Positions 30,177 to 41,226 of a stretch of DNA of 64,000 nucleotides are shown piece by piece. Where the stretch lies: contig JAQXEE010000130.1 of the NCBI GenBank assembly GCA_029251005.1, forward strand, positions 3,328 to 67,327. Reading direction: 5' to 3'. The DNA comes from Flavobacteriales bacterium. Lineage in GTDB: Bacteria > Bacteroidota > Bacteroidia > Flavobacteriales_C > GCA-002722245. Numbering within the stretch: position 1 is the stretch's first letter; every line of letters starts with the position of its first letter. The translations under genes were made by a program, and so were the position numbers. Under the pieces are notes generated by a model, which searched no databases, was not told the origin of the DNA, and was given only the letters and a program-made list of their open reading frames with translations.

Positions 30177-30300
30177 ATATCAATTTAAATAGCTGAAAAA
30201 CAAGTGTTTAAATTTATATCTAATATTTTATCAATTTTAACTTGTTAGAAAAGAAAAAAGATTATACATTTGCAGTCCTTAAAATAATGAGGAACATTTT

Positions 30301-30372
30301 GGCCCGTTCGTCTAGGGGTTAGGACGCCAGGTTTTCATCCTGGTAACAGGGGTTCGATTCCCCTACGGGCTA
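30301..30372 (+). tRNA. tRNA-Glu (anticodon TTC)
   Basis: Cloverleaf folded by hand: acceptor GGCCCGT/ACGGGCT, anticodon stem GCCAGG/CCTGG with loop TTTTCAT, T-arm AGGGGTTCGATTCCCCT; no encoded CCA. Confidence 0.9.
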
Positions 30373-30791: not shown

Positions 30792-31478
30792 ATGGAAATA
30801 AGTAATACTATTAAAAACTGGAATTTAGATGATCGTCCTCGTGAGAAGTTAATAAATAAAGGTGCTTCAGTTTTAAGTAATGCGGAACTTATGGCTATTA
30901 TTTTAGGAAGTGGAAGTAGAAGTGAATCAGCAGTTGGCTTAGCGAAAAGAATTTTGCAGAAAGCAGATAACAATTTTGCTAAGTTAAGTAGAATGCAGAT
31001 TGAAGACTTTAAACAGTTTAAAGGGGTTGGGGAAGCTAAAGCGGTGAGTTTATCGGCAACGTTTGAATTTGCACGACGAAGAAAAGAAGAAGTTGATGTG
31101 GTGACTAAGATTGGATCTAGTTCGGATATTTTTAAAGAAATGAGTTCAAATCTATCGGATTTGAATCATGAAGAGTTTTGGGTTGTTTTTTTAAATAGAG
31201 GAAATCGGATTATCAAAAAAGAACGAATTAGTTCTGGAGGAATAACAGGAACAGTAGTAGATAATAAGATAATCCTAAAAAAAGCATTACTTCATTTAGC
31301 TTCATCTGTTATTTTAGTCCATAACCATCCATCGGGAAATTTAAAACCAAGTCCACAAGACCATAAAGTGACTCAAAAGATCAAATCAGCATGCGAATTG
31401 TTAGAAATTAATTTGTTAGATCACCTTATTATAGCAGGAAATTCTTATTATAGCTTTGCAGACGAATTAGATCTTTAA
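30792..31478 (+). CDS. radC: RadC-like JAB/MPN domain protein (UPF0758)
   Basis: N-terminal HhH region plus HNHPSG JAMM motif. Confidence 0.8.
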   Translation: MEISNTIKNWNLDDRPREKLINKGASVLSNAELMAIILGSGSRSESAVGLAKRILQKADNNFAKLSRMQIEDFKQFKGVGEAKAVSLSATFEFARRRKEEVDVVTKIGSSSDIFKEMSSNLSDLNHEEFWVVFLNRGNRIIKKERISSGGITGTVVDNKIILKKALLHLASSVILVHNHPSGNLKPSPQDHKVTQKIKSACELLEINLLDHLIIAGNSYYSFADELDL

Positions 31479-32584
31479 TGAAGAAAATTTTGACGGTTAT
31501 CGGACCACGTCCTCAAGTTATAAAATCAGCTGCGATAACGAGAGTTGTGCGTGATGTTTTTAGAGGAGAACTTGAAGAAGTAGTTGTGCATACAGGTCAG
31601 CATTTCGATGCCAATATGAGTAGCGACTTTTATGCTGAAATGTTTTTACCAATTCCAAGGTATCAATTTGAAGTTAACCCTTCAGAACCACTGCCAATTA
31701 ATCAAATGATTCAAAATATTCAGGTCGCTGTTATGAAAGAATCTCCTGATGCATTAGTTGTTTATGGAGATACTAATTCTACATTAGCGGGTACAATTTC
31801 TGCCCTAATTGAAGATATTCCGTTAATCCATGTTGAAGCAGGAATGCGATCGTTTAATATGTTAATGCCTGAGGAAGGTAATCGAATATTAACAGATCAT
31901 TCGAGTGATTTATTATTTTCTCCTACGAAGATTGGTGTATTAAACTTAAAGAAGGAAAAAATAAACTTAGATAAGGTGAAGTACTGTGGAGATGTGATGT
32001 TTGACAACAGCTTGTTTTACGAAGCGAAAGCACGCCAACAATCAACTATCTTAACAAGGTATAATTTAAAACACAATGAGTTTAATTTATTTACGTGTCA
32101 TAGAGGTAGTAATACTGACGATGCTGTAAAGTTAAGAGCTATTCTTGAAGGAGTTATAGAAATTAAACTTAAATCAGGGAATGAGATTGTATTCCCGATG
32201 CATCCAAGGACTGAAAAGATGATTATAACGTTTTTTGGATCGTATTATTTAGACCAATTAAAATCTAAAATTTTAGTAATACAACCTGCATCTTATTTAG
32301 ATATAATAATGTTAGAGTGTAATTCTAATATTGTGATTACTGATTCTGGTGGTATTCAAAAGGAGGCTTATTTTTTTAAGAAAAAGTCATTGATTTTGAG
32401 GGAGGAAACAGAGTGGGGTGAAATCCTGGATAATAAAGCTGCTATTTTATTCAAATCAAATGAAGGTTCTTTGATTCAGGCATATGAAAAAGTATTAAAA
32501 CTTAGTCCTAATTTTAAGGATATATATGGAGATGGTAAGGCGGGAGAATTTATTTGTAATGAGATTTTAGAGTTGTTAAAATGA
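31478..32584 (+). CDS. wecB: UDP-N-acetylglucosamine 2-epimerase (non-hydrolysing)
   Basis: MKKILTVIGPRPQVIKSAAI...HTGQHFD... canonical WecB. Confidence 0.85.
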   Translation: MKKILTVIGPRPQVIKSAAITRVVRDVFRGELEEVVVHTGQHFDANMSSDFYAEMFLPIPRYQFEVNPSEPLPINQMIQNIQVAVMKESPDALVVYGDTNSTLAGTISALIEDIPLIHVEAGMRSFNMLMPEEGNRILTDHSSDLLFSPTKIGVLNLKKEKINLDKVKYCGDVMFDNSLFYEAKARQQSTILTRYNLKHNEFNLFTCHRGSNTDDAVKLRAILEGVIEIKLKSGNEIVFPMHPRTEKMIITFFGSYYLDQLKSKILVIQPASYLDIIMLECNSNIVITDSGGIQKEAYFFKKKSLILREETEWGEILDNKAAILFKSNEGSLIQAYEKVLKLSPNFKDIYGDGKAGEFICNEILELLK

Positions 32585-33885
32585 TATATGTTTTTACCCA
32601 TAAAATAACAAGCAGAGTTAAATATGCATTTAATCTTGTCTTTAGAGATGTAATGCAAACAGACTATAAGTTAATTTCTGATCGAAAGGAATTTGAGGTT
32701 TTGGAAGGTGTGAAGATTGCTTACACTATTAATCCTATTGATAATGCTTTTTTTATAAGGAGTAAGCCTCTTTTGTTTGAAAATGGAATAAGTGATCAGG
32801 AGATTAACGTTATGCCATTTGATCGAACAAAAGCCTTTTTTGGGGTAGGCGGTAATAGTATGTTTCCCTTTGATGTATTTGCGGCTTCATTTTATTTGGC
32901 GGCGCGATATGAAGAGTATTTACCGCATAAGAAAGATTTATACAATCGGTTTGATGCACCGCAAAGTTTAGCCTTCAACGAAGGGGTTTTACATCAGCCT
33001 GTCATTAATATTTGGATTTCAAAATTCGCGGATTTTTTAAAGGAGCTCTATCCCTTATTTACTATGCCCGAGCGGGAGTATAAGTTTATCACCACGATTG
33101 ATGTAGATAACGCTTATGCTTATTTGGAAAAAGGATTTGTACGGTCGTTAATGGGCTACAGTAAATCTATTTTAACATTGGATTTTAAAAGTTTTAAAAA
33201 TAGAACTAAAACTCTTTTGGGGTTACAAAAAGATCCGTACGACACATTTGAATATCAAGAAAACTTGGTTAAGAATCAAAACTTAACCTTTATTTACTTC
33301 TTTCTTTTGGGAGATTATGGAATGAATGATAAAAATATTCCAGTAAGTAGTAGGAGATTTCAATCGTTAATTAAATCAATTTCCGATCATTCAAAGATTG
33401 GAATTCACCCCTCTTTTGCTTCAAATTATAACTTCAAACAACTGGAAAAGGAAGTGACTCGACTGAGTAATGTAATAAATCGAGAGATTTGGAGAAGTCG
33501 TCAACACTTTTTAAAGTTACTACTGCCCGATACATATCGTAATTTGATAGAATTGGACATTACGGATGATTTTACAATGGGGTACGCTTCTAACTATGGT
33601 TTTAGAGCAGGTTTGTGTACACCGTTTTATTTTTATGATTTGGATTTGGAAGTTGAAACAAACTTAAAGATTCATCCTTTTGCAATTATGGAGGGGACTT
33701 TAAAATATTACATGGAAATAGAACCGGAAGCTGCAATTCCTCATTTCAAACGATTGATTGATGAGGTTAGGATGGTAAATGGGGAGTTTATTTCGCTTTG
33801 GCATAATGACAGTTTGAATAACAGCGATTTATGGAAAGGATGGAAAGCTGTTTTTGAAGAGATGATTGCATACGGTAAAGAATGA
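32581..33885 (+). CDS. hypothetical 434-aa protein, possibly polysaccharide-deacetylase-like; overlaps wecB stop by 4 nt
   Basis: ORF with ATGA coupling to wecB; weak resemblance (ITTIDVDN, HPSF) to carbohydrate esterase folds; not verifiable here. Confidence 0.4.
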   Translation: MIYVFTHKITSRVKYAFNLVFRDVMQTDYKLISDRKEFEVLEGVKIAYTINPIDNAFFIRSKPLLFENGISDQEINVMPFDRTKAFFGVGGNSMFPFDVFAASFYLAARYEEYLPHKKDLYNRFDAPQSLAFNEGVLHQPVINIWISKFADFLKELYPLFTMPEREYKFITTIDVDNAYAYLEKGFVRSLMGYSKSILTLDFKSFKNRTKTLLGLQKDPYDTFEYQENLVKNQNLTFIYFFLLGDYGMNDKNIPVSSRRFQSLIKSISDHSKIGIHPSFASNYNFKQLEKEVTRLSNVINREIWRSRQHFLKLLLPDTYRNLIELDITDDFTMGYASNYGFRAGLCTPFYFYDLDLEVETNLKIHPFAIMEGTLKYYMEIEPEAAIPHFKRLIDEVRMVNGEFISLWHNDSLNNSDLWKGWKAVFEEMIAYGKE

Positions 33886-34769
33886 AATTATTAAAAAAGG
33901 CAGATATTGATATTGAGAAATGGAATGCTTGTATTACAAGTTCCGATAATCCTTTAGTATATGGCTTGATAGCTTACTTGGATATCGTGGCAAAAGATTG
34001 GCAGGGGTTAGTTTGGGAGGATAACGAACAATATATGGCTGTTTTCCCTTTGCCTATTCGAGTTAAGTATGGATTAGAATATATTTATCCACCATTTTTT
34101 ATTCAGCAGCTAGGACTTTTCACAAGAGGAAATAATCGTGATGAATTAGAGAAAGAGGCTTTTGATTTTTTAAATGGGAAAATAAATTTTATTGAACTTT
34201 ATGTTAAAGGTAAAGGTGTACTAGGGACAAAACGAAGGAATTGTACTCTTTTATTAAACAAATCTTATGATTCTTTAAGGTTGAATTATTCTTCCAATCA
34301 TAAAAGAAATTTAAAAAAAGCACACAAGTCAAATCTTACGGTTGATTGCAATGTTAATATAAGTCAAATCATAAATTTATTTAGATTGGATAAAGGAGCC
34401 CATCTTGATACATTACAAAATCAAGATTATGAAAATTTACAAAGTATAGCAATTGGACTAGAATCAGATTGCTATGGAGTTTATAGTGACGGAAAGCTTA
34501 TTTGTGGTGGATTATTTCTGAAATTTAAAGACCGAATAACATTTTTGTTTTCGGGTAACACAGTTGAAGGGAAAGATAAAGGGGCATTGTTTTTTTTATT
34601 AGATTATTTAATATCTATTAATGCCAATAAACAAATGGTTTTTGATTTTGAAGGAAGTGAAAATGATGGTTTGCGAAGGTTCTACCTTGGCTTTGGAGCA
34701 GAGCTTGAAATTTATAGATTTATTAAAGTGAATAACCTAAAATTCCCATTCTCATTATTCAAGAAATAA
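33882..34769 (+). CDS. hypothetical protein with probable GNAT/FemAB-like acyltransferase fold
   Basis: 295 aa; coupled (ATGA overlap) to the upstream gene; pattern ...GGLFLKFKDRITFLFSG...FDFEGS... resembles peptidoglycan-bridge FemAB-type GNAT proteins. Confidence 0.35.
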   Translation: MKLLKKADIDIEKWNACITSSDNPLVYGLIAYLDIVAKDWQGLVWEDNEQYMAVFPLPIRVKYGLEYIYPPFFIQQLGLFTRGNNRDELEKEAFDFLNGKINFIELYVKGKGVLGTKRRNCTLLLNKSYDSLRLNYSSNHKRNLKKAHKSNLTVDCNVNISQIINLFRLDKGAHLDTLQNQDYENLQSIAIGLESDCYGVYSDGKLICGGLFLKFKDRITFLFSGNTVEGKDKGALFFLLDYLISINANKQMVFDFEGSENDGLRRFYLGFGAELEIYRFIKVNNLKFPFSLFKK

Positions 34770-34870: not shown

Positions 34871-36937
34871 ATGTCCATGAAATTACCTTCAAAATGGATT
34901 AACCGAGAAATTAGTTGGTTAAGTTTTAATGAAAGAGTTTTACAAGAAGCTGAAGACGCTACGAACCCTACTATTGAACGATTAAAATTCTTAGGAATTT
35001 TCTCTAATAATAGAGATGAGTTTTTTAGGGTTAGAGTTGCAAATATCAAAAAAGTAGCAGAAATAAAAGGGAACGCTAAGCTTTCGTCTGGTGAAAATCC
35101 AAAGGTTATTCTTGATAAAATATTAAAGCAGGTTTTAAAACAACAGGTTCGATTTGACAAGGCATATAAAAATCTTATCAATGAGTTGAAAAAGGAGAAT
35201 ATCTTCTTTGTTAATGAATTTCAAATTGCTGGTGAACAACAACAATTTACCAAAGATTATTTTTCAGATAAAGTAAGAACTAATTTAGTTCCTATTTTAA
35301 TTGATAAAAAGAAGCCTTTTCCATTTATGAAAGATGCTTCGACTTATATGTGCATTAAAATGTACAATAAGGAGAAGAGGAATACTAAGATAGAATACGC
35401 CTTATTAGAAATTCCTTCTGAGAGGGTAAATAGAATTGTTATTCTTCCTAGTATCGAAAAAAAGAAGTATTTGATGATGTTAGATGACATTATCCGATAC
35501 AATCTCCCATCGGTGTTTTCGATTTTTAATTATGATACAATTGAAGGTTATAATATTAAATTAACTAGAGATGCTGGTCTTGAAATAGATGAAGATTTAT
35601 CTAAAAGTATTGTTGATAAATTAACACAAAGCGTAAAAGACAGAAAGGTAGGTGAGTTAGTTCGTTTTGTTTATGACGGAGATATGCCTGAAGACATGAA
35701 GGCTCTAATTGTTAAGAAGATGAAGCTTCAAAAGAGTGATAACTTAATACCAGGAGGTCGTTATCATAACTTTAAAGATTTTATAGCGTTCCCTGAAATA
35801 GGCTCTGCCAAATTGCTTAATCCAAGTTTGCCTGCTTTGCCTCAAAAAGATTTAGAGGGAGTGTCGAGTATTATGGATGTGATAAATAAAAAGGATGTAG
35901 TGTGTTTTTATCCTTTTCAGAAGTTTGATTATGTAATTGATTTCTTACGTCAAGCTGCTATTGATCCTAATGTTACGACCATTAAGATTAATATTTATAG
36001 AGTTGCTAGTAATTCAAGAATTATAAATGCATTAATTAATGCTGTTAAAAACGGAAAAGATGTTACTGTATTAATTGAATTGCGGGCAAGATTTGATGAG
36101 CAAAACAACATTAAGTGGAGTAAGGTTTTAGAAGACGAAGGAGTGAAGGTTCATTTTGGTTTACCTGGATTGAAAATTCACAGTAAATTAATTTTGGTAA
36201 AGCGATTGGAAGGTCGATCGGAAAAAAAATATGTGCATGTTGGTACAGGGAACTTTCATGAAATGACAGCTAAAATTTACTCTGACGCTTCATTGTTAAC
36301 TTCGGATAAAAGAATTACGAATGACATTGAGAAGGTATTTGAATTAATAGAACGTCCTTACATTAATAAGCGATTTACAAATATTATTATTTCACCTTAC
36401 AATACGAGATCTAGGTTTTCAGCCTTGATTCAAGGCGAAATTAAAAATGCTAAAAAAGGATTAAAAGCTAAGATTATTATAAAATTAAACAACTTTAATG
36501 ATCCCGAATTAATCAATAAGCTTTACGAGGCTTCTTGTGAGGGAGTTGAGATTAAGTTGATTATCAGAGGTATTTGTACTTTGGTGCCTGGAGTAAAAGA
36601 TTTAAGTGAAAACATAGAAGTAATTAGTATAATCGATCGTTATTTAGAACACATTAGAATGTTTAATTTTCATAACGCTGGAGACGAATTGTTTTTTATT
36701 GGTTCAGCCGATTGGTTGGGTAGAAACTTAGATAAAAGAGTTGAGGTAACTACTCCGATTTATGATAAGGACATTAAAACTCAAATGAGAGAGTTTTTAG
36801 GTTTGCAATTAAAGGATAATGTAAAGGCTAGGATAATTGATGAGAAAGGACGGAACAAATACGTTCTCAAAAAGACAAAGAAAATACGTTCTCAAATTGC
36901 CCAGTATGATTACTTCAAATCATTATTGGATACCTAA
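34871..36937 (+). CDS. ppk1: polyphosphate kinase 1
   Basis: 688 aa; N-terminal WINREISWLSFNERVLQEA...; two PLD-like HKD motifs in the C-terminal half, typical of PPK1. Confidence 0.9.
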   Translation: MSMKLPSKWINREISWLSFNERVLQEAEDATNPTIERLKFLGIFSNNRDEFFRVRVANIKKVAEIKGNAKLSSGENPKVILDKILKQVLKQQVRFDKAYKNLINELKKENIFFVNEFQIAGEQQQFTKDYFSDKVRTNLVPILIDKKKPFPFMKDASTYMCIKMYNKEKRNTKIEYALLEIPSERVNRIVILPSIEKKKYLMMLDDIIRYNLPSVFSIFNYDTIEGYNIKLTRDAGLEIDEDLSKSIVDKLTQSVKDRKVGELVRFVYDGDMPEDMKALIVKKMKLQKSDNLIPGGRYHNFKDFIAFPEIGSAKLLNPSLPALPQKDLEGVSSIMDVINKKDVVCFYPFQKFDYVIDFLRQAAIDPNVTTIKINIYRVASNSRIINALINAVKNGKDVTVLIELRARFDEQNNIKWSKVLEDEGVKVHFGLPGLKIHSKLILVKRLEGRSEKKYVHVGTGNFHEMTAKIYSDASLLTSDKRITNDIEKVFELIERPYINKRFTNIIISPYNTRSRFSALIQGEIKNAKKGLKAKIIIKLNNFNDPELINKLYEASCEGVEIKLIIRGICTLVPGVKDLSENIEVISIIDRYLEHIRMFNFHNAGDELFFIGSADWLGRNLDKRVEVTTPIYDKDIKTQMREFLGLQLKDNVKARIIDEKGRNKYVLKKTKKIRSQIAQYDYFKSLLDT

Positions 36938-38004
36938 TGCTCAAAAAAATTATTAGTTGGACTTTATTAATTTTTATTCCGGTTACTTTTATAATTGGAA
37001 TAATCGCAGTTGTGGAACTATACTGCGGATATTCTTATTTTAAATATCGAGATACCCTAAAAAATGAACTAAATGCGATTCGTTTGAGGGAGCCTTTTCA
37101 TAATCAAAATAATTCAGCTCTTCACCATGGTGAAGAGGTGCTTTTTAGAACTGACTCAGAGGGTTATATTCTGCCATATAGAAACATAGACTCTTCTAGT
37201 CATACAATAGCTTTTATAGGAGGTTCAACAACAGAATGTCGCCTCGTTAATGAGAATATAAGAGTTCATAGGTCTGTTGAGCGTATTTTAAACGCTAAAG
37301 GAAATCGAGTTACCTGTTTAAATATCGGGAACAGTGGAAATCATTCGATGCATTCGCTAAATATTTTAGCGAATAAAGTAATGAAATATAGCCCTGAGGT
37401 TGTTGTTGTGAATCATAATGTGAACGATTTAAGTGTTTTATTAAATACAGGAACCTATTTTAATAAGCATCCGCAACGTTCGTTGTTACTAGAGAATACG
37501 GAAAGCTTGTATGCGTATAAGGTTGGTTTACCTAAAAACAAATTTGTAAGGAATTTCATTCCCTATATCTCATTAGTTCTACTACCAACTACTTTTGATG
37601 GTGAACATTTAATTGAGCAAGATGAGTTTCCTTCTGGGCCAGTTAGTTTTGATTTAACAAAACAGTTTTTAAAAAATGAGTTTAAAAAAAGTATCACAGG
37701 TCTTATCGCTTACGCAAAGGCTTGGCAAGTAAAGCCAATATTAATGACGCAAGGGAGTTGCTTTTCGTACGGTATAAAAAATATCGATAGATATGATGGT
37801 TATGATTTACTATTGTTACATCAAGAGTTTAATAAAGTAATAAGAGAGGTGGCTATAAGTGAAGCGGTTGAGTTAGTAGATGCTGAACTTTTAATGAAAG
37901 GCAACAAATCTTATTTTTTTGATTCCGTTCACTACACCGATTCAGGTTCTGTTTTTATATCGAAATATATTTCTAATCGTATTCAAAAATTAATTGACAA
38001 TTGA
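36937..38004 (+). CDS. membrane-anchored SGNH/GDSL-like hydrolase family protein (hypothetical)
   Basis: N-terminal TM; IAFIGGSTTE block resembles SGNH block I; start overlaps the ppk1 stop (TAATG). Confidence 0.45.
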   Translation: MLKKIISWTLLIFIPVTFIIGIIAVVELYCGYSYFKYRDTLKNELNAIRLREPFHNQNNSALHHGEEVLFRTDSEGYILPYRNIDSSSHTIAFIGGSTTECRLVNENIRVHRSVERILNAKGNRVTCLNIGNSGNHSMHSLNILANKVMKYSPEVVVVNHNVNDLSVLLNTGTYFNKHPQRSLLLENTESLYAYKVGLPKNKFVRNFIPYISLVLLPTTFDGEHLIEQDEFPSGPVSFDLTKQFLKNEFKKSITGLIAYAKAWQVKPILMTQGSCFSYGIKNIDRYDGYDLLLLHQEFNKVIREVAISEAVELVDAELLMKGNKSYFFDSVHYTDSGSVFISKYISNRIQKLIDN

Positions 38005-39860
38005 AGGTATTAGGAATATCTGCACTTTATCACGATTCGGCGGCTTCAATCGTAGTTAATGGCGAAATAATTGCAGCGGCTCAAGAAGAGCGATTTACAA
38101 GGGTGAAACAAGATGCCTCATTTCCGGTAAATGCAATTCAGTTTTGTTTGGCTGAAGCGGGAATTCAATTGAGTGAATTGGATGCTGTAGTATTTTATGA
38201 TAAGCCTTTATTGAAGTTTGAACGTTTATTAGAGACTTACTTCTTTTATGCTCCAAAAGGGATACTTTCTTTTGTGAAGTCAATGCCAGTATGGATTAAT
38301 GAGAAAATGTTTTTTAAAAAGCTACTTAAACAATCATTTAAAAAAATCGGAGAATTAGATTGGAATAAAACTAAATTATTGTTTCCTGAACATCATTTGT
38401 CACACGCTGCAAGTGCTTTTTTTCCTTCTCGGTTTGATGAGTCTGCAATTTTAACAATTGATGGAGTAGGAGAGTGGGCAACCGTGTCTATATCTAAAGG
38501 AAGTGGTAACGAGATTAAAGTTCTAAAAGAAATTAATTTCCCAAATTCCCTAGGATTACTTTATTCTTCTTTTACTTATTTTTTAGGGTTTAAGGTAAAT
38601 AGTGGAGAGTATAAGTTGATGGGGATGGCTCCTTATGGCAATTTGAATAGTAAGGAAGTTGATAATTTCATATCAATTATAAAAAGAGAATTAATAACGC
38701 TTTTTCCTGATGGATCATTTAGATTAAATCAGCGTTACTTTAATTATGCTACGGGTTTAAGAATGGTTAAAGATAAGAAGTGGCAGAAGTTGTTTGGAAT
38801 TGAAAAAAGAAGAGCAGAATCTATAATTTCTCAACAGCATTGTAATTTAGCAATAGCAATACAAAAAGTGACAGAAGAGGTTGTTTTACTTTTAGCAAAA
38901 GAGGCTAAAAGGTTAACGGGGCTTGATAGTATATGTCTTGCAGGAGGAGTAGCTTTAAACTGCGTTTCTAATGGAGTGTTACAAAGGTCTGGTATATTTT
39001 CTGAAATGTATATTCAACCAGCTTCAGGTGACGCAGGTGGAGCATTAGGTGCAGCTTTAGCAGGGTATTATATTTACTTTAAGAAAGATCGGTCTGTTGC
39101 TACAGTTAAATATGATTTGATGAAGGGCTCTTTTTTAGGTCCATCTTTTTCGAATAAAGAAGTTAGAGATGAGCTGATTAAGAGGAAAGCTGTATTTGCG
39201 GAGTATGAAGACGTTGAATCTTTATTGAGAGAAACAGCGAAACTAATTGATAAAGGGAATGTCATTGGATGGTTTCAAGGAAAGATGGAGTTTGGACCAA
39301 GAGCTTTAGGTAATCGTAGTATTATTGGTGACCCTCGGAATATGGAAATGCAGCGAAAAATTAATTTGAAAATTAAATATAGAGAAGGTTTTAGACCGTT
39401 TGCACCTTCTGTTTTAGAGGAAGATGTCTCAAATTTTTTCGATTATAAAGGGTCGTCTCCATATATGTTAGAAGTACATTCTTTAAAATCTGAACATAAA
39501 GTTGCCTCCAATTTAATTTCTGGTTTTACGACATTAAAAGAGAGGTTGGATAGTAAAGAATGCACTTTCCCGGCTACAACGCATGTTGATGATTCAGCAA
39601 GGATTCAAACGGTATCCAAAGATACAAACCAACGGTATTGGAGGCTTATAAACGCATTTAAGTCTTTAACTGGTTGTCCTATGGTGGTTAATACTAGCTT
39701 CAATGTTAGAGGAGAGCCAATGGTTTCTAAACCTTTTGATGCATACCGTTGTTTTATGGAAACTGAAATGGATGTATTAGTGATAGGAGACTTTTTAATG
39801 CATAAAGATGGCCAACCTGAATGGAAGTCTTTGAATTCTAAAAAGTTTAAATTAGATTAG
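38001..39860 (+). CDS. carbamoyltransferase (NodU/CmcH family)
   Basis: MKVLGISALYHDSAASIVVNGEIIAAAQEERFTRVK... is the hallmark N-terminus; 619 aa; TTG start overlapping the upstream stop. Confidence 0.85.
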   Translation: MKVLGISALYHDSAASIVVNGEIIAAAQEERFTRVKQDASFPVNAIQFCLAEAGIQLSELDAVVFYDKPLLKFERLLETYFFYAPKGILSFVKSMPVWINEKMFFKKLLKQSFKKIGELDWNKTKLLFPEHHLSHAASAFFPSRFDESAILTIDGVGEWATVSISKGSGNEIKVLKEINFPNSLGLLYSSFTYFLGFKVNSGEYKLMGMAPYGNLNSKEVDNFISIIKRELITLFPDGSFRLNQRYFNYATGLRMVKDKKWQKLFGIEKRRAESIISQQHCNLAIAIQKVTEEVVLLLAKEAKRLTGLDSICLAGGVALNCVSNGVLQRSGIFSEMYIQPASGDAGGALGAALAGYYIYFKKDRSVATVKYDLMKGSFLGPSFSNKEVRDELIKRKAVFAEYEDVESLLRETAKLIDKGNVIGWFQGKMEFGPRALGNRSIIGDPRNMEMQRKINLKIKYREGFRPFAPSVLEEDVSNFFDYKGSSPYMLEVHSLKSEHKVASNLISGFTTLKERLDSKECTFPATTHVDDSARIQTVSKDTNQRYWRLINAFKSLTGCPMVVNTSFNVRGEPMVSKPFDAYRCFMETEMDVLVIGDFLMHKDGQPEWKSLNSKKFKLD

Positions 39861-39864
39861 ATAT

Positions 39865-40014
39865 ATGAGTACAGTCAAAGATTTTTGGATGTTTATGAAA
39901 GAGCGTAAGAAGTTTTGGCTCGCTCCAGTAATTATTGTGTTTTTATTACTTGGTTTTGCAATTGCTTTTGCGAGTACTTCATCAGCTGGAGCATTTGTTT
40001 ATACTTTGTTTTAA
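39865..40014 (+). CDS. 49-aa single-TM peptide conserved downstream of carbamoyltransferases (DUF5989-like)
   Basis: MSTVKDFWMFMKERKKFWLAPVIIVFLLLGFAIAFASTSSAGAFVYTLF; not in the supplied ORF track (<60 aa); its stop overlaps the next ATG (TAATG). Confidence 0.5.
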   Translation: MSTVKDFWMFMKERKKFWLAPVIIVFLLLGFAIAFASTSSAGAFVYTLF

Positions 40015-40403
40015 TGAAACTAGATATTGATTTTCAAAAAAAAAGAATTGAGACGATATTAACGATCTCTGCTGGATTTTTTGTAATTGGAGGTTTGAAA
40101 AGTTGGAGTGCCAATGAAATAGTTTATTGGCCACTTTATGTTATTGTTCCAATATTAGTATTTGGTTTAAGCATAAAATCAGTTGGTGTTTTAATAACCA
40201 AGATTTGGTTTAAGCTTTCAGAATTGATGGGTTTTTTCTCGTCTAATATTATCCTCTCTTTGTTTTATTATCTTTTTATTACTCCTTATTCATTTATCAT
40301 TAGACTCTTTAAAAAGGATAAGTTTCGGGTCACAAAAATGAAAAGTACTTTTGTGACAAGGGATAAAGTTTATGGATCAAAAGATTTAGAGAATCCATGG
40401 TGA
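40014..40403 (+). CDS. SxtJ-like small membrane protein
   Basis: MKLDIDFQKKRIETILTISAGFFVIGGLK... two to three TM helices; partner of carbamoyltransferase clusters; the track ORF 39915-40403 is an over-extension. Confidence 0.5.
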   Translation: MKLDIDFQKKRIETILTISAGFFVIGGLKSWSANEIVYWPLYVIVPILVFGLSIKSVGVLITKIWFKLSELMGFFSSNIILSLFYYLFITPYSFIIRLFKKDKFRVTKMKSTFVTRDKVYGSKDLENPW

Positions 40404-41226
40404 TAATTTCATCAAAAAGCAAAAAGGCGAATACAAACGGTGATGCGATTAATAATCCATCAAATCTATCGAGTATGCCACCGTGACCAGGCATTATTTT
40501 ACCGGAATCTTTAACATTCATACTTCTTTTAAACAAACTTTCTGCTAAATCTCCCATAGATCCGAAAACGGATATTATTAAGCCGATAGAGGCCCATTTC
40601 CATAGAGGTAAAGTTGTGAAGAATATTCCGCAAAAAATTGCAATTCCAATCGCTAAAAGTGCTCCTCCTATACTTCCTTCCCAAGTTTTATTTGGTGATA
40701 TTCTTTCGAATAACTTATGTTTCCCGAAAGACTTTCCGGATAAATAAGCACCGGTATCATTGCTCCATAAAATAAAGTAAAAACCTAAGATTAATTCACT
40801 TGAGTATTTACCTGATGAATTACTTGGAAACATTGAATTGGATAGAATTAATAGTCCAAAAGGTAATGCAACATATATTAAAGGGAATATTGTTTGGGCA
40901 ATATTTGAAAACGGATTTGGTTTATTATTGTATAACTCAATTAATGGAGTTACAAACACTGAGAATGTCAATGCCCCAATAAAAGGAAGTGAACTTAAGC
41001 CAAGGATGGTTTCTGAAGTAAGTGCTAAAAACGTAAAAGCACTGAGGATTAATCCAAGCGGTGTATTTGGTTCGAAATCTGAATGTTTAGAGATGATACT
41101 CAAGTATTCCCAAGTTCCTATCAATACAAAGATAAAGTAAAGTCCAAATAAAGAAAACGGGCTCAGATATGTGCTGAAAATTAATACAGTCACAAATACA
41201 GAACCCGTTAATGCTCTTTTTAGCAT
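40330..41226 (-). CDS. cdsA: phosphatidate cytidylyltransferase
   Basis: C-terminal ...MPGHGGILDRFDGLLIASPFVF... CdsA signature; multiple TM segments. Confidence 0.8.
   Translation of the reverse strand: MLKRALTGSVFVTVLIFSTYLSPFSLFGLYFIFVLIGTWEYLSIISKHSDFEPNTPLGLILSAFTFLALTSETILGLSSLPFIGALTFSVFVTPLIELYNNKPNPFSNIAQTIFPLIYVALPFGLLILSNSMFPSNSSGKYSSELILGFYFILWSNDTGAYLSGKSFGKHKLFERISPNKTWEGSIGGALLAIGIAIFCGIFFTTLPLWKWASIGLIISVFGSMGDLAESLFKRSMNVKDSGKIMPGHGGILDRFDGLLIASPFVFAFLLFDEIITMDSLNLLIHKLYPLSQKYFSFL

Follow-up and report, generated by a model that had tools for sequence, protein, structure and literature searches.

The window analysed here, a 64,000-nucleotide (nt) stretch of contig JAQXEE010000130.1 from a Flavobacteriales bacterium, carries a compact array of five genes on its + strand between positions 34871 and 40403. 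The array begins with ppk1 and continues with genes for an SGNH hydrolase, an O-carbamoyltransferase (CT), a DUF5989 peptide and an SxtJ-family protein, as listed below (lengths in amino acids, aa; TM, transmembrane).

34871-36937, + strand: ppk1, polyphosphate kinase 1 (688 aa), with TIGR03705 and four PPK Pfam domains
36937-38004, + strand: membrane-anchored SGNH/GDSL hydrolase (355 aa), with an N-terminal TM helix, a small beta-sheet and the SGNH domain
38001-39860, + strand: CT of the NodU/CmcH/TobZ/GdmN family (619 aa, TTG start), assigned by Pfam and PDB matches
39865-40014, + strand: DUF5989 peptide (49 aa), PF19451
40014-40403, + strand: SxtJ-family small membrane protein (129 aa), PF19588

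The five genes and their coordinates, first picked out in a sequence-only reading of this DNA, were confirmed: the open reading frames (ORFs) match, and their families could be assigned by Pfam and NCBIfam. The same reading had described all five as linked by overlapping stop and start codons. Read from the sequence, this holds for three junctions, namely ppk1/SGNH ('ccTAATGct', a 1-nt overlap), SGNH/CT ('aaTTGAagg', where the TTG start and the TGA stop overlap by 4 nt) and DUF5989/SxtJ ('ttTAATGaa', a 1-nt overlap), and fails at CT/DUF5989, where a 4-nt spacer separates the two genes (TAG-atat-ATG). A crude gene call over the window showed that 11/41 same-strand neighbour pairs overlap and 17/41 lie within 10 nt, with a coding fraction of about 88%. 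Upstream of ppk1, the RadC/WecB, WecB/DUF7033 and DUF7033/p295 pairs (p295 being a 295-aa protein) are also chained by overlaps of 1-4 nt, and RadC has no evident functional tie to the other three despite this chain. Because so many same-strand pairs overlap, unrelated genes included, the stop-start overlaps of the array are unremarkable for this genome.

We then considered each protein in turn, beginning with the CT. It is a clear member of the TobZ/GdmN/NovN family, and O-carbamoylation activity is predicted for it. Both of its domains are complete: the Kae1-like N-terminal domain matched Carbam_trans_N (PF02543) at 1.8e-91 over positions 1-346/346, and the YrdC-like C-terminal domain matched Carbam_trans_C (PF16861) at 1.3e-70 over positions 1-170/170. 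Matches in the PDB were GdmN (1.5e-91), NovN (3.3e-90) and TobZ (3.7e-74), and the motifs EHHLSHAAS, TIDGVGEW and SGDAGGALGAA were all seen in the sequence. Translated from the TTG start, the protein begins MKVLGISALYHDSAA, and this start is credible because the Pfam match begins at model position 1. The CT is not a NodU orthologue, scoring 140.3 bits against the NF041651 equivalog cutoff of 1000. Its identity to homologues was 53-63% across Bacteroidota, Balneolaceae, Desulfobacterota, SAR11, Alteromonadaceae and cyanobacteria.

The 49-aa ORF matched PF19451 (DUF5989) at 1.1e-19 and 70.7 bits against a cutoff of 27, over positions 1-49/49. The expectation that it would be conserved in relatives was borne out: it is exactly 49 aa long in 64/78 homologues from related loci, and comparison with the 92%-identical relative at locus L012 revealed 9 synonymous and 1 non-synonymous codon differences. 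This synonymous excess and the retained length indicate that the ORF is, by comparative evidence, a real gene, and it should be called in annotation. The N-terminal segment of the peptide is amphipathic and basic (RKK), a single TM helix is present, and the hydrophobic C-terminus is conserved (...FxYTLF); the consensus is MEFxKDLWxFLKERKKxWLxPIII..APFIYTLF, in which K15, P21, Y46 and F49 are invariant. A profile search returned at least 7999 clusters at 90% identity, from Gammaproteobacteria, Verrucomicrobiota, Mariprofundus, Smithella, Balneola, Algoriphagus and others, under the NCBI name 'DUF5989 family protein'.

The 129-aa ORF had been called SxtJ-like, and this assignment stands: PF19588 (SxtJ) matched at 9e-8 and 33.2 bits, above the gathering cutoff of 24.4, over model positions 19-99/99. 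Hydropathy and conservation profiles across 77 homologues showed that three segments are hydrophobic and that the basic tail at the C-terminus is conserved. An AlphaFold model made from the sequence without an alignment was helical, with a predicted template modelling score (pTM) of 0.27, and gave no further information. Searches of domain libraries gave no MBOAT or AT3 (acyltransferase-3) match for the DUF5989 peptide or the SxtJ protein, which have 1 and 3 hydrophobic segments, respectively. At one locus, a Bacteroidetes contig from a metagenome-assembled genome (MAG; L069, 1161-3386), CT and SxtJ form a single 742-aa ORF with SxtJ at the CT C-terminus and no DUF5989 gene between them. This ORF could be either a natural fusion or an assembly artefact; it suggests that CT and SxtJ may physically associate and that the SxtJ N-terminus may be cytoplasmic.

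The match of the SGNH protein to Lipase_GDSL_2 was marginal (32.7 bits against a cutoff of 32.9). Its AlphaFold model, with a mean predicted local distance difference test score (pLDDT) of 91.6, has an SGNH fold preceded by a helix at residues 2-40, and the best structural matches of the model were plain esterases. Among 64 homologues, S97 (in GGSTTE), G134, N163 (in HNVND) and D329/H332 were invariant or nearly so, and the SGNH catalytic set is thus complete. The membrane anchor proposed from the sequence agreed both with the modelled helix and with an N-terminal TM segment in 60/64 homologues. The flanks of this segment carry a net charge of +2.5 on the N side versus +0.7 on the C side. Because of the TM anchor and this charge bias, an outward-facing domain is favoured; the protein is probably oriented N-in/C-out, with its catalytic domain facing the periplasm.

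To place the array in context, we scanned species-representative genomes with the CT and obtained 80 loci at 53-92% identity. They came from several orders of Bacteroidota and from Balneolaceae, Smithella/Syntrophaceae/Desulfobulbaceae, Pelagibacter, Alteromonadaceae, Vulcanococcus, Sumerlaeota and Cloacimonadota, the closest being an uncultured Flavobacteriales MAG from FRAM18. Counts were made over those 55 loci in which the CT is flanked by 3 kb or more in both directions; their six-frame ORFs were searched with hidden Markov models (HMMs). Within 3 kb of the CT, a DUF5989 gene was present in 55/55 loci, an SxtJ gene likewise in 55/55, and a GDSL/SGNH-like ORF in 41/55. A metagenome census of 80 contigs, anchored on the peptide instead, revealed CT in 69/80, SxtJ in 74/80, one or both of them in 76/80, and SGNH in 23/80; among the well-flanked contigs, 12/14 held both CT and SxtJ. 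The proposal that CT, a small TM peptide and SxtJ form a recurring trio is thus well founded, and this CT subfamily is, on these counts, defined by obligatory DUF5989 and SxtJ neighbours.

Gene order around the CT was shuffled. Writing S for SGNH, C for CT, K for DUF5989 and J for SxtJ, we saw C-K-J, C-S-K-J, S-C-K-J, C-K-J-S, S-J-K-C and J-K-C-S. Shuffled order with constant content indicates a functional module. At one further locus (L038, 13044-14574), two DUF5989 copies flank an SGNH-like gene in the order C-K-S-K-J. The SGNH partners at other loci were found by an iterated HMM and confirmed with Pfam on a sample of 12 ORFs, all of which (12/12) had GDSL-type matches, some being fused to TPR repeats. 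By pairwise phmmer (E<1e-10) an SGNH protein was detectable at only 7 loci. We therefore rejected the idea that all adjacent SGNH genes are orthologues, since most are too divergent for pairwise phmmer. The SGNH partner is a frequent, fast-evolving and possibly exchangeable member of the cassette. With a GDSL/SGNH-like gene beside the trio in 41/55 loci, its presence in the window is that of a frequent cassette member and not a novel coupling. As judged from its distribution, the conserved unit is a widespread cassette of four genes, in which a TM-anchored SGNH hydrolase joins CT, DUF5989 and SxtJ; the window SGNH gene should be annotated as part of it.

The genes surrounding the cassette were also compared across loci. 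In a Pfam census, the 131 nearest neighbours fell into 163 families, none present in more than 4 loci; a search for a conserved neighbour that might reveal the substrate, made by clustering 757 flanking ORFs, found no family in more than 12/80 loci. The commonest neighbour families were mildly of envelope type (PMT_2 with TPR, NAD-epimerase/dehydratase, GT2, GT4, ABC-2 and MBOAT), and in Prochlorococcus-like loci the cassette lies among Wza, Wzz, GT4 and methyltransferase genes. Such varied contexts suggest that the cassette is a self-contained, transferable module. In the window itself, a genomic island or horizontal-transfer signature was considered and rejected, as G+C content is flat (0.29-0.36 across the region) and the flanks are syntenic within the clade. 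CdsA (phosphatidate cytidylyltransferase) is found no more than about 2-3 kb from the cassette in three Chitinophagales loci (L031, L043 and L046) and also in the clade of the window (window positions 40330-41226); this proximity in two Bacteroidota orders may be left over from older synteny, or may hint weakly at a link to lipids.

The first gene of the array behaved differently. Its identity is secure, with TIGR03705 at 779 bits against a cutoff of 465.85 and matches to PP_kinase_N, PP_kinase (middle), C_1 and C_2. We found ppk1 within 10 kb of the CT in 2/55 genome loci, both from the window's own Flavobacteriales clade; it was near the peptide in 0/14 well-flanked metagenome loci (10 kb) and in none of the 80 contigs of the peptide-anchored census. 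The ppk1-linked loci (L001-L004, L012 and L065) all belong to this one clade, and all show the extended order of the window: RadC, WecB, DUF7033, p295, ppk1, SGNH, CT, DUF5989 and SxtJ, followed convergently by CdsA, FtsH and RsfS. As all of them share the full RadC-to-FtsH synteny, one ancestral arrangement explains the ppk1-positive loci. Other Flavobacteriales (Flavobacteriaceae, Nonlabens, Flavobacterium and Crocinitomicaceae MAGs) carry the cassette without ppk1 adjacency, as does every other phylum in which it was found. Comparative synteny, which had been named as a check on whether the adjacency is restricted to one strain, showed that it is clade-wide and does not extend beyond that clade. 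The arrangement is, by its shared gene order, old within one Flavobacteriales lineage and not strain-specific.

Within the clade, ppk1 is about 80% and FtsH 77-82% identical, and the cassette proteins are at 57-62% (CT), about 60% (SGNH), 53-65% (DUF5989) and 40-42% (SxtJ). The window CT is no closer to the CTs of its own clade (L001, L003 and L065; 57-62%) than to those of L013-L091 from other phyla (53-63%), with ppk1 and FtsH at about 80% in the clade; rapid evolution of the cassette in this low-GC lineage could account for this, or CT identity may already be at its floor. The 1-nt ppk1/SGNH overlap occurs only in the window and in L012. Elsewhere in the clade the two genes are separated by 24 nt (L001) or 18 nt (L003 and L065), giving a range of -1 to 24 nt. 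ppk1 is probably co-transcribed with the cassette. These findings indicate that ppk1 is not a member of the conserved cassette and most likely not a pathway partner; the linkage is explained most simply, and most probably, by lineage-specific synteny inherited within a compact genome, and not by a pathway coupled to polyphosphate. In annotation, the adjacency should not be taken as evidence for a polyphosphate-linked pathway.

From these results we favour a membrane-tethered O-carbamoylation cassette with an esterase partner and a putative envelope or lipid-linked acceptor, ppk1 being simply the syntenic gene upstream; we rate the chance that this is right as about even. The soluble CT would make carbamoyl-AMP from carbamoyl phosphate and ATP and then O-carbamoylate a hydroxyl group, chemistry that is established for TobZ and GdmN and predicted here. 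DUF5989 and SxtJ would either anchor the CT to the inner membrane on its cytoplasmic side or bring a membrane-embedded acceptor to it. The acceptor may be a lipid or a lipid-linked envelope glycan, and that it is conserved is suggested by the high conservation of the CT across phyla. The SGNH hydrolase would then remove an ester or the carbamate from the same molecule (deprotection or decarbamoylation), after the role proposed for SxtL.

Several observations weigh against this proposal. The cross-phylum identity of the CT (53-63%) would argue for a conserved acceptor over a strain-variable glycan, and the CT-SxtJ fusion was seen in one MAG contig only. No SGNH gene lies nearby in 14/55 loci; the divergent partners at most of the other loci may not be orthologous, or may lack one shared role; and some DUF5989 genes pair with SGNH without an adjacent CT (L008, L099 and L131). 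The tight ppk1 spacing is retained clade-wide, so that a functional link within the clade is possible.

A bolder form of the same proposal is that CT, DUF5989 and SxtJ, usually with SGNH, constitute a widespread multi-subunit machine that O-carbamoylates, and reversibly de-esterifies, one conserved target across many phyla (SAR11, Prochlorococcus and marine Flavobacteriales among them), either a membrane lipid or a lipid-linked precursor of the envelope. In this view the CT would depend on the two small proteins as its membrane subunits, and saxitoxin producers would merely have borrowed a housekeeping-type module. We consider this form unlikely.

Somewhat less probable still is a unit built around the hydrolase, in which DUF5989, SxtJ and SGNH form a membrane esterase or acyl-transfer complex and the CT is an independent, co-located enzyme. 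DUF5989 lies directly upstream of SGNH in Prochlorococcus-like loci, where the CT is 4 kb away (L005) or has no copy within 10 kb (L008/L009), and the metagenome loci L099 and L131 hold DUF5989 and SGNH only; however, DUF5989 and SxtJ accompany the CT with no SGNH nearby in 14/55 loci, and no CT locus (0/55) lacks them. The peptide-anchored contigs point the same way, with CT in 69/80 versus SGNH in 23/80, as does the CT-SxtJ fusion in L069. The L008 (12739-16777) and L009 contigs, both metagenomic and Prochlorococcus-like, carry the DUF5989 and SGNH pair with no adjacent CT. A trio of VTC (polyphosphate-polymerase-like), CotH and DUF4956 genes lies 1.6 kb from this pair on the opposite strand, in one lineage only; it is a second, independent polyphosphate-flavoured neighbour.

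Tailoring of a soluble small molecule, as by sxtIJKL for saxitoxin, was also considered, with the cassette as a part or remnant of a natural-product pathway. The only contexts in which such genes have an assigned role are the saxitoxin (PMC2679770, PMC2885083) and suomilide (PMC10157211) clusters, and the closest solved CT structures are those of the antibiotic-tailoring enzymes GdmN, NovN and TobZ. The window neighbours nevertheless include no core biosynthetic genes, the nearest-neighbour families at other loci are heterogeneous and non-biosynthetic, and 3/4 of the cassette proteins are membrane-embedded or membrane-anchored. The cassette moreover occurs in Pelagibacter, Prochlorococcus-like and low-GC marine Flavobacteriales genomes, small genomes in which few natural-product clusters are expected. 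We judge this alternative improbable.

A relay across the membrane is more doubtful again. Here the carbamate, activated by the CT in the cytoplasm, would cross the membrane by way of SxtJ and DUF5989 and be transferred to an exported polymer by the periplasmic SGNH protein, in the manner of PatA/PatB, AlgI/AlgJ/AlgX or OatA. The architecture is similar, in that the activating enzyme is cytoplasmic, the integral membrane proteins are small and the SGNH protein is predicted to face outward; some partner SGNH proteins also carry TPR repeats. SxtJ and DUF5989, with three and one hydrophobic segments, are nonetheless unlike the acyl-translocating MBOAT or AT3 proteins, and the structural neighbours of the SGNH model are plain esterases. 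General enzymology also speaks against transfer through the SGNH serine, since adducts of the carbamoyl-serine type are usually stable and inhibitory.

Least probable of all is the polyphosphate co-regulation put forward in the sequence-only reading, by which co-translated PPK1 would let polyphosphate or ATP status control or fuel carbamoyl-AMP formation or envelope modification: the 1-nt ppk1/SGNH overlap in the window and L012, the spacing of at most 24 nt in all clade members despite cassette proteins at 40-62% identity, and the VTC domain gene 1.6 kb from the DUF5989 and SGNH pair in Prochlorococcus-like contigs are outweighed by the absence of ppk1 from 53/55 CT-anchored genome loci and 14/14 well-flanked metagenome loci, by the complete RadC-to-FtsH synteny of all ppk1-positive loci, by overlaps that are commonplace in this genome even between clearly unrelated genes, and by a VTC neighbour that is on the opposite strand in one lineage only. 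That reading as a whole is partly supported.

The remaining features of the region were also recorded. The genes within about 6 kb of the cassette are RadC, WecB, DUF7033, p295, ppk1, CdsA, FtsH and RsfS. The WecB-DUF7033-p295 trio (31478-34769, +), its genes linked through 4-nt overlaps, lies just upstream of ppk1 and is conserved in the same clade. WecB is a UDP-GlcNAc 2-epimerase (TIGR00236, 235 bits, above the cutoff); the DUF7033 protein matched the NCBIfam model 'UDP-2,3-diacetamido-2,3-dideoxy-glucuronate deacetylase VimE' with a score of 153 bits, which falls short of the cutoff (440); and homologues of p295 gave a faint FemAB match. We take this trio to resemble the vimE/vimA-type sugar-modification genes of Bacteroidota. 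At the other end of the array, SxtJ (+) and CdsA (-) converge, and their 3' ends share 74 nt (40330-40403). In relatives CdsA is about 271 aa long and does not reach into SxtJ; by comparison, the window CdsA seems to be prolonged at its C-terminus by about 27 aa that are not conserved.

The Bacteroidota-type -7 motif (TAnnTTTG) is matched exactly at 36798 (+), in the 3' end of ppk1 and 139 nt ahead of where the SGNH gene starts. This makes it a possible but weak candidate for an internal cassette promoter, and since the + strand of the window holds 44 copies of the motif, it does not count as promoter evidence. Sigma-70-type sites in the window numbered 52 against 58 expected, at or below chance, from a model unsuited to Bacteroidota. 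The sole Rfam match was a tRNA at 30301-30372 (+; RF00005, 61.9 bits), just upstream of ribosomal protein S20, with an exact TAnnTTTG motif at 30265. A PADLOC search gave no defence-system match.

The cassette therefore matters more than its link to ppk1. The locus itself carries modest weight, and the class is worth targeting: study of the cassette in a tractable carrier could reveal a new envelope or lipid modification and settle the roles of SxtJ, SxtK and SxtL.

We next compared the cassette with known systems. The window CT shares with TobZ, GdmN, NovN and NodU the two-domain architecture of Carbam_trans_N and Carbam_trans_C, end to end. To our knowledge, those are soluble tailoring enzymes with no dedicated small membrane partners. 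PatA/PatB, AlgI/AlgJ/AlgX and OatA move acetyl groups, whereas the group donated by the window cassette would be carbamoyl, its cytoplasmic enzyme would be the ATP-dependent CT, and it has no MBOAT or AT3 protein. A named precedent for O-carbamoylation of an envelope glycan is WapO (PA5005), a putative carbamoyltransferase credited with O-carbamoylating heptose II of the Pseudomonas lipopolysaccharide inner core (PMC8005017), likened here to the window CT by description only. WapO sits in a dedicated lipopolysaccharide core cluster, and its paper describes no SxtJ, DUF5989 or SGNH partners (PMC8005017).

The closest likeness is to the saxitoxin clusters, in which sxtI (O-carbamoyltransferase, 1839 bp), sxtJ (405 bp), sxtK (165 bp) and sxtL (GDSL lipase, 1281 bp) are adjacent (PMC2679770, PMC2684587, PMC2885083). 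SxtI has been proposed to act together with SxtJ and SxtK, and SxtL to be a decarbamoylase (PMC2679770, PMC12300590); a 2025 review repeats the SxtI/J/K proposal without functional proof for SxtJ and SxtK (PMC12300590). Genes like sxtJ, sxtK and sxtL are also grouped together within the suomilide cluster (PMC10157211). The window holds the same gene types, namely a CT, an adjacent SxtJ-family gene (PF19588), an ORF of about 50 aa and a GDSL/SGNH hydrolase in the cluster, a set that parallels sxtIJKL. The original saxitoxin cluster paper reportedly noted sxtJ and sxtK homologues beside carbamoyltransferases in other genomes. The coupling of an SGNH gene to the trio, which the sequence-only reading did not know to be described, does not hold up as new: such a gene is present in most loci, and the four genes parallel sxtI/J/K/L (PMC2679770, PMC2684587).

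The likeness has its limits. No core sxt genes (sxtA-type polyketide synthase, amidinotransferase or others) were found among the window neighbours within about 6 kb. The best 120 matches of searches with the DUF5989 profile and with a 53-aa Prochlorococcus-type peptide included no protein named SxtK, only 'DUF5989 family protein' or unnamed entries. The 49-aa peptide is the presumed counterpart of SxtK, a link of size and position only, and we infer that the window SGNH protein corresponds to SxtL. The order also differs, I-J-K-L in sxt versus S-C-K-J in the window, whose host is a marine Flavobacteriales bacterium. The three Pfam-assigned families of the cassette (CT, SxtJ and GDSL) also occur in sxtI, sxtJ and sxtL, and since both Pfam and the saxitoxin literature already cover the cassette, it is not new as a class. 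Converted from their lengths in bp, SxtI, SxtJ, SxtK and SxtL are 612, 134, 54 and 426 aa long (PMC2679770), compared with 619, 129, 49 and 355 aa for the CT, SxtJ, DUF5989 and SGNH proteins of the window.

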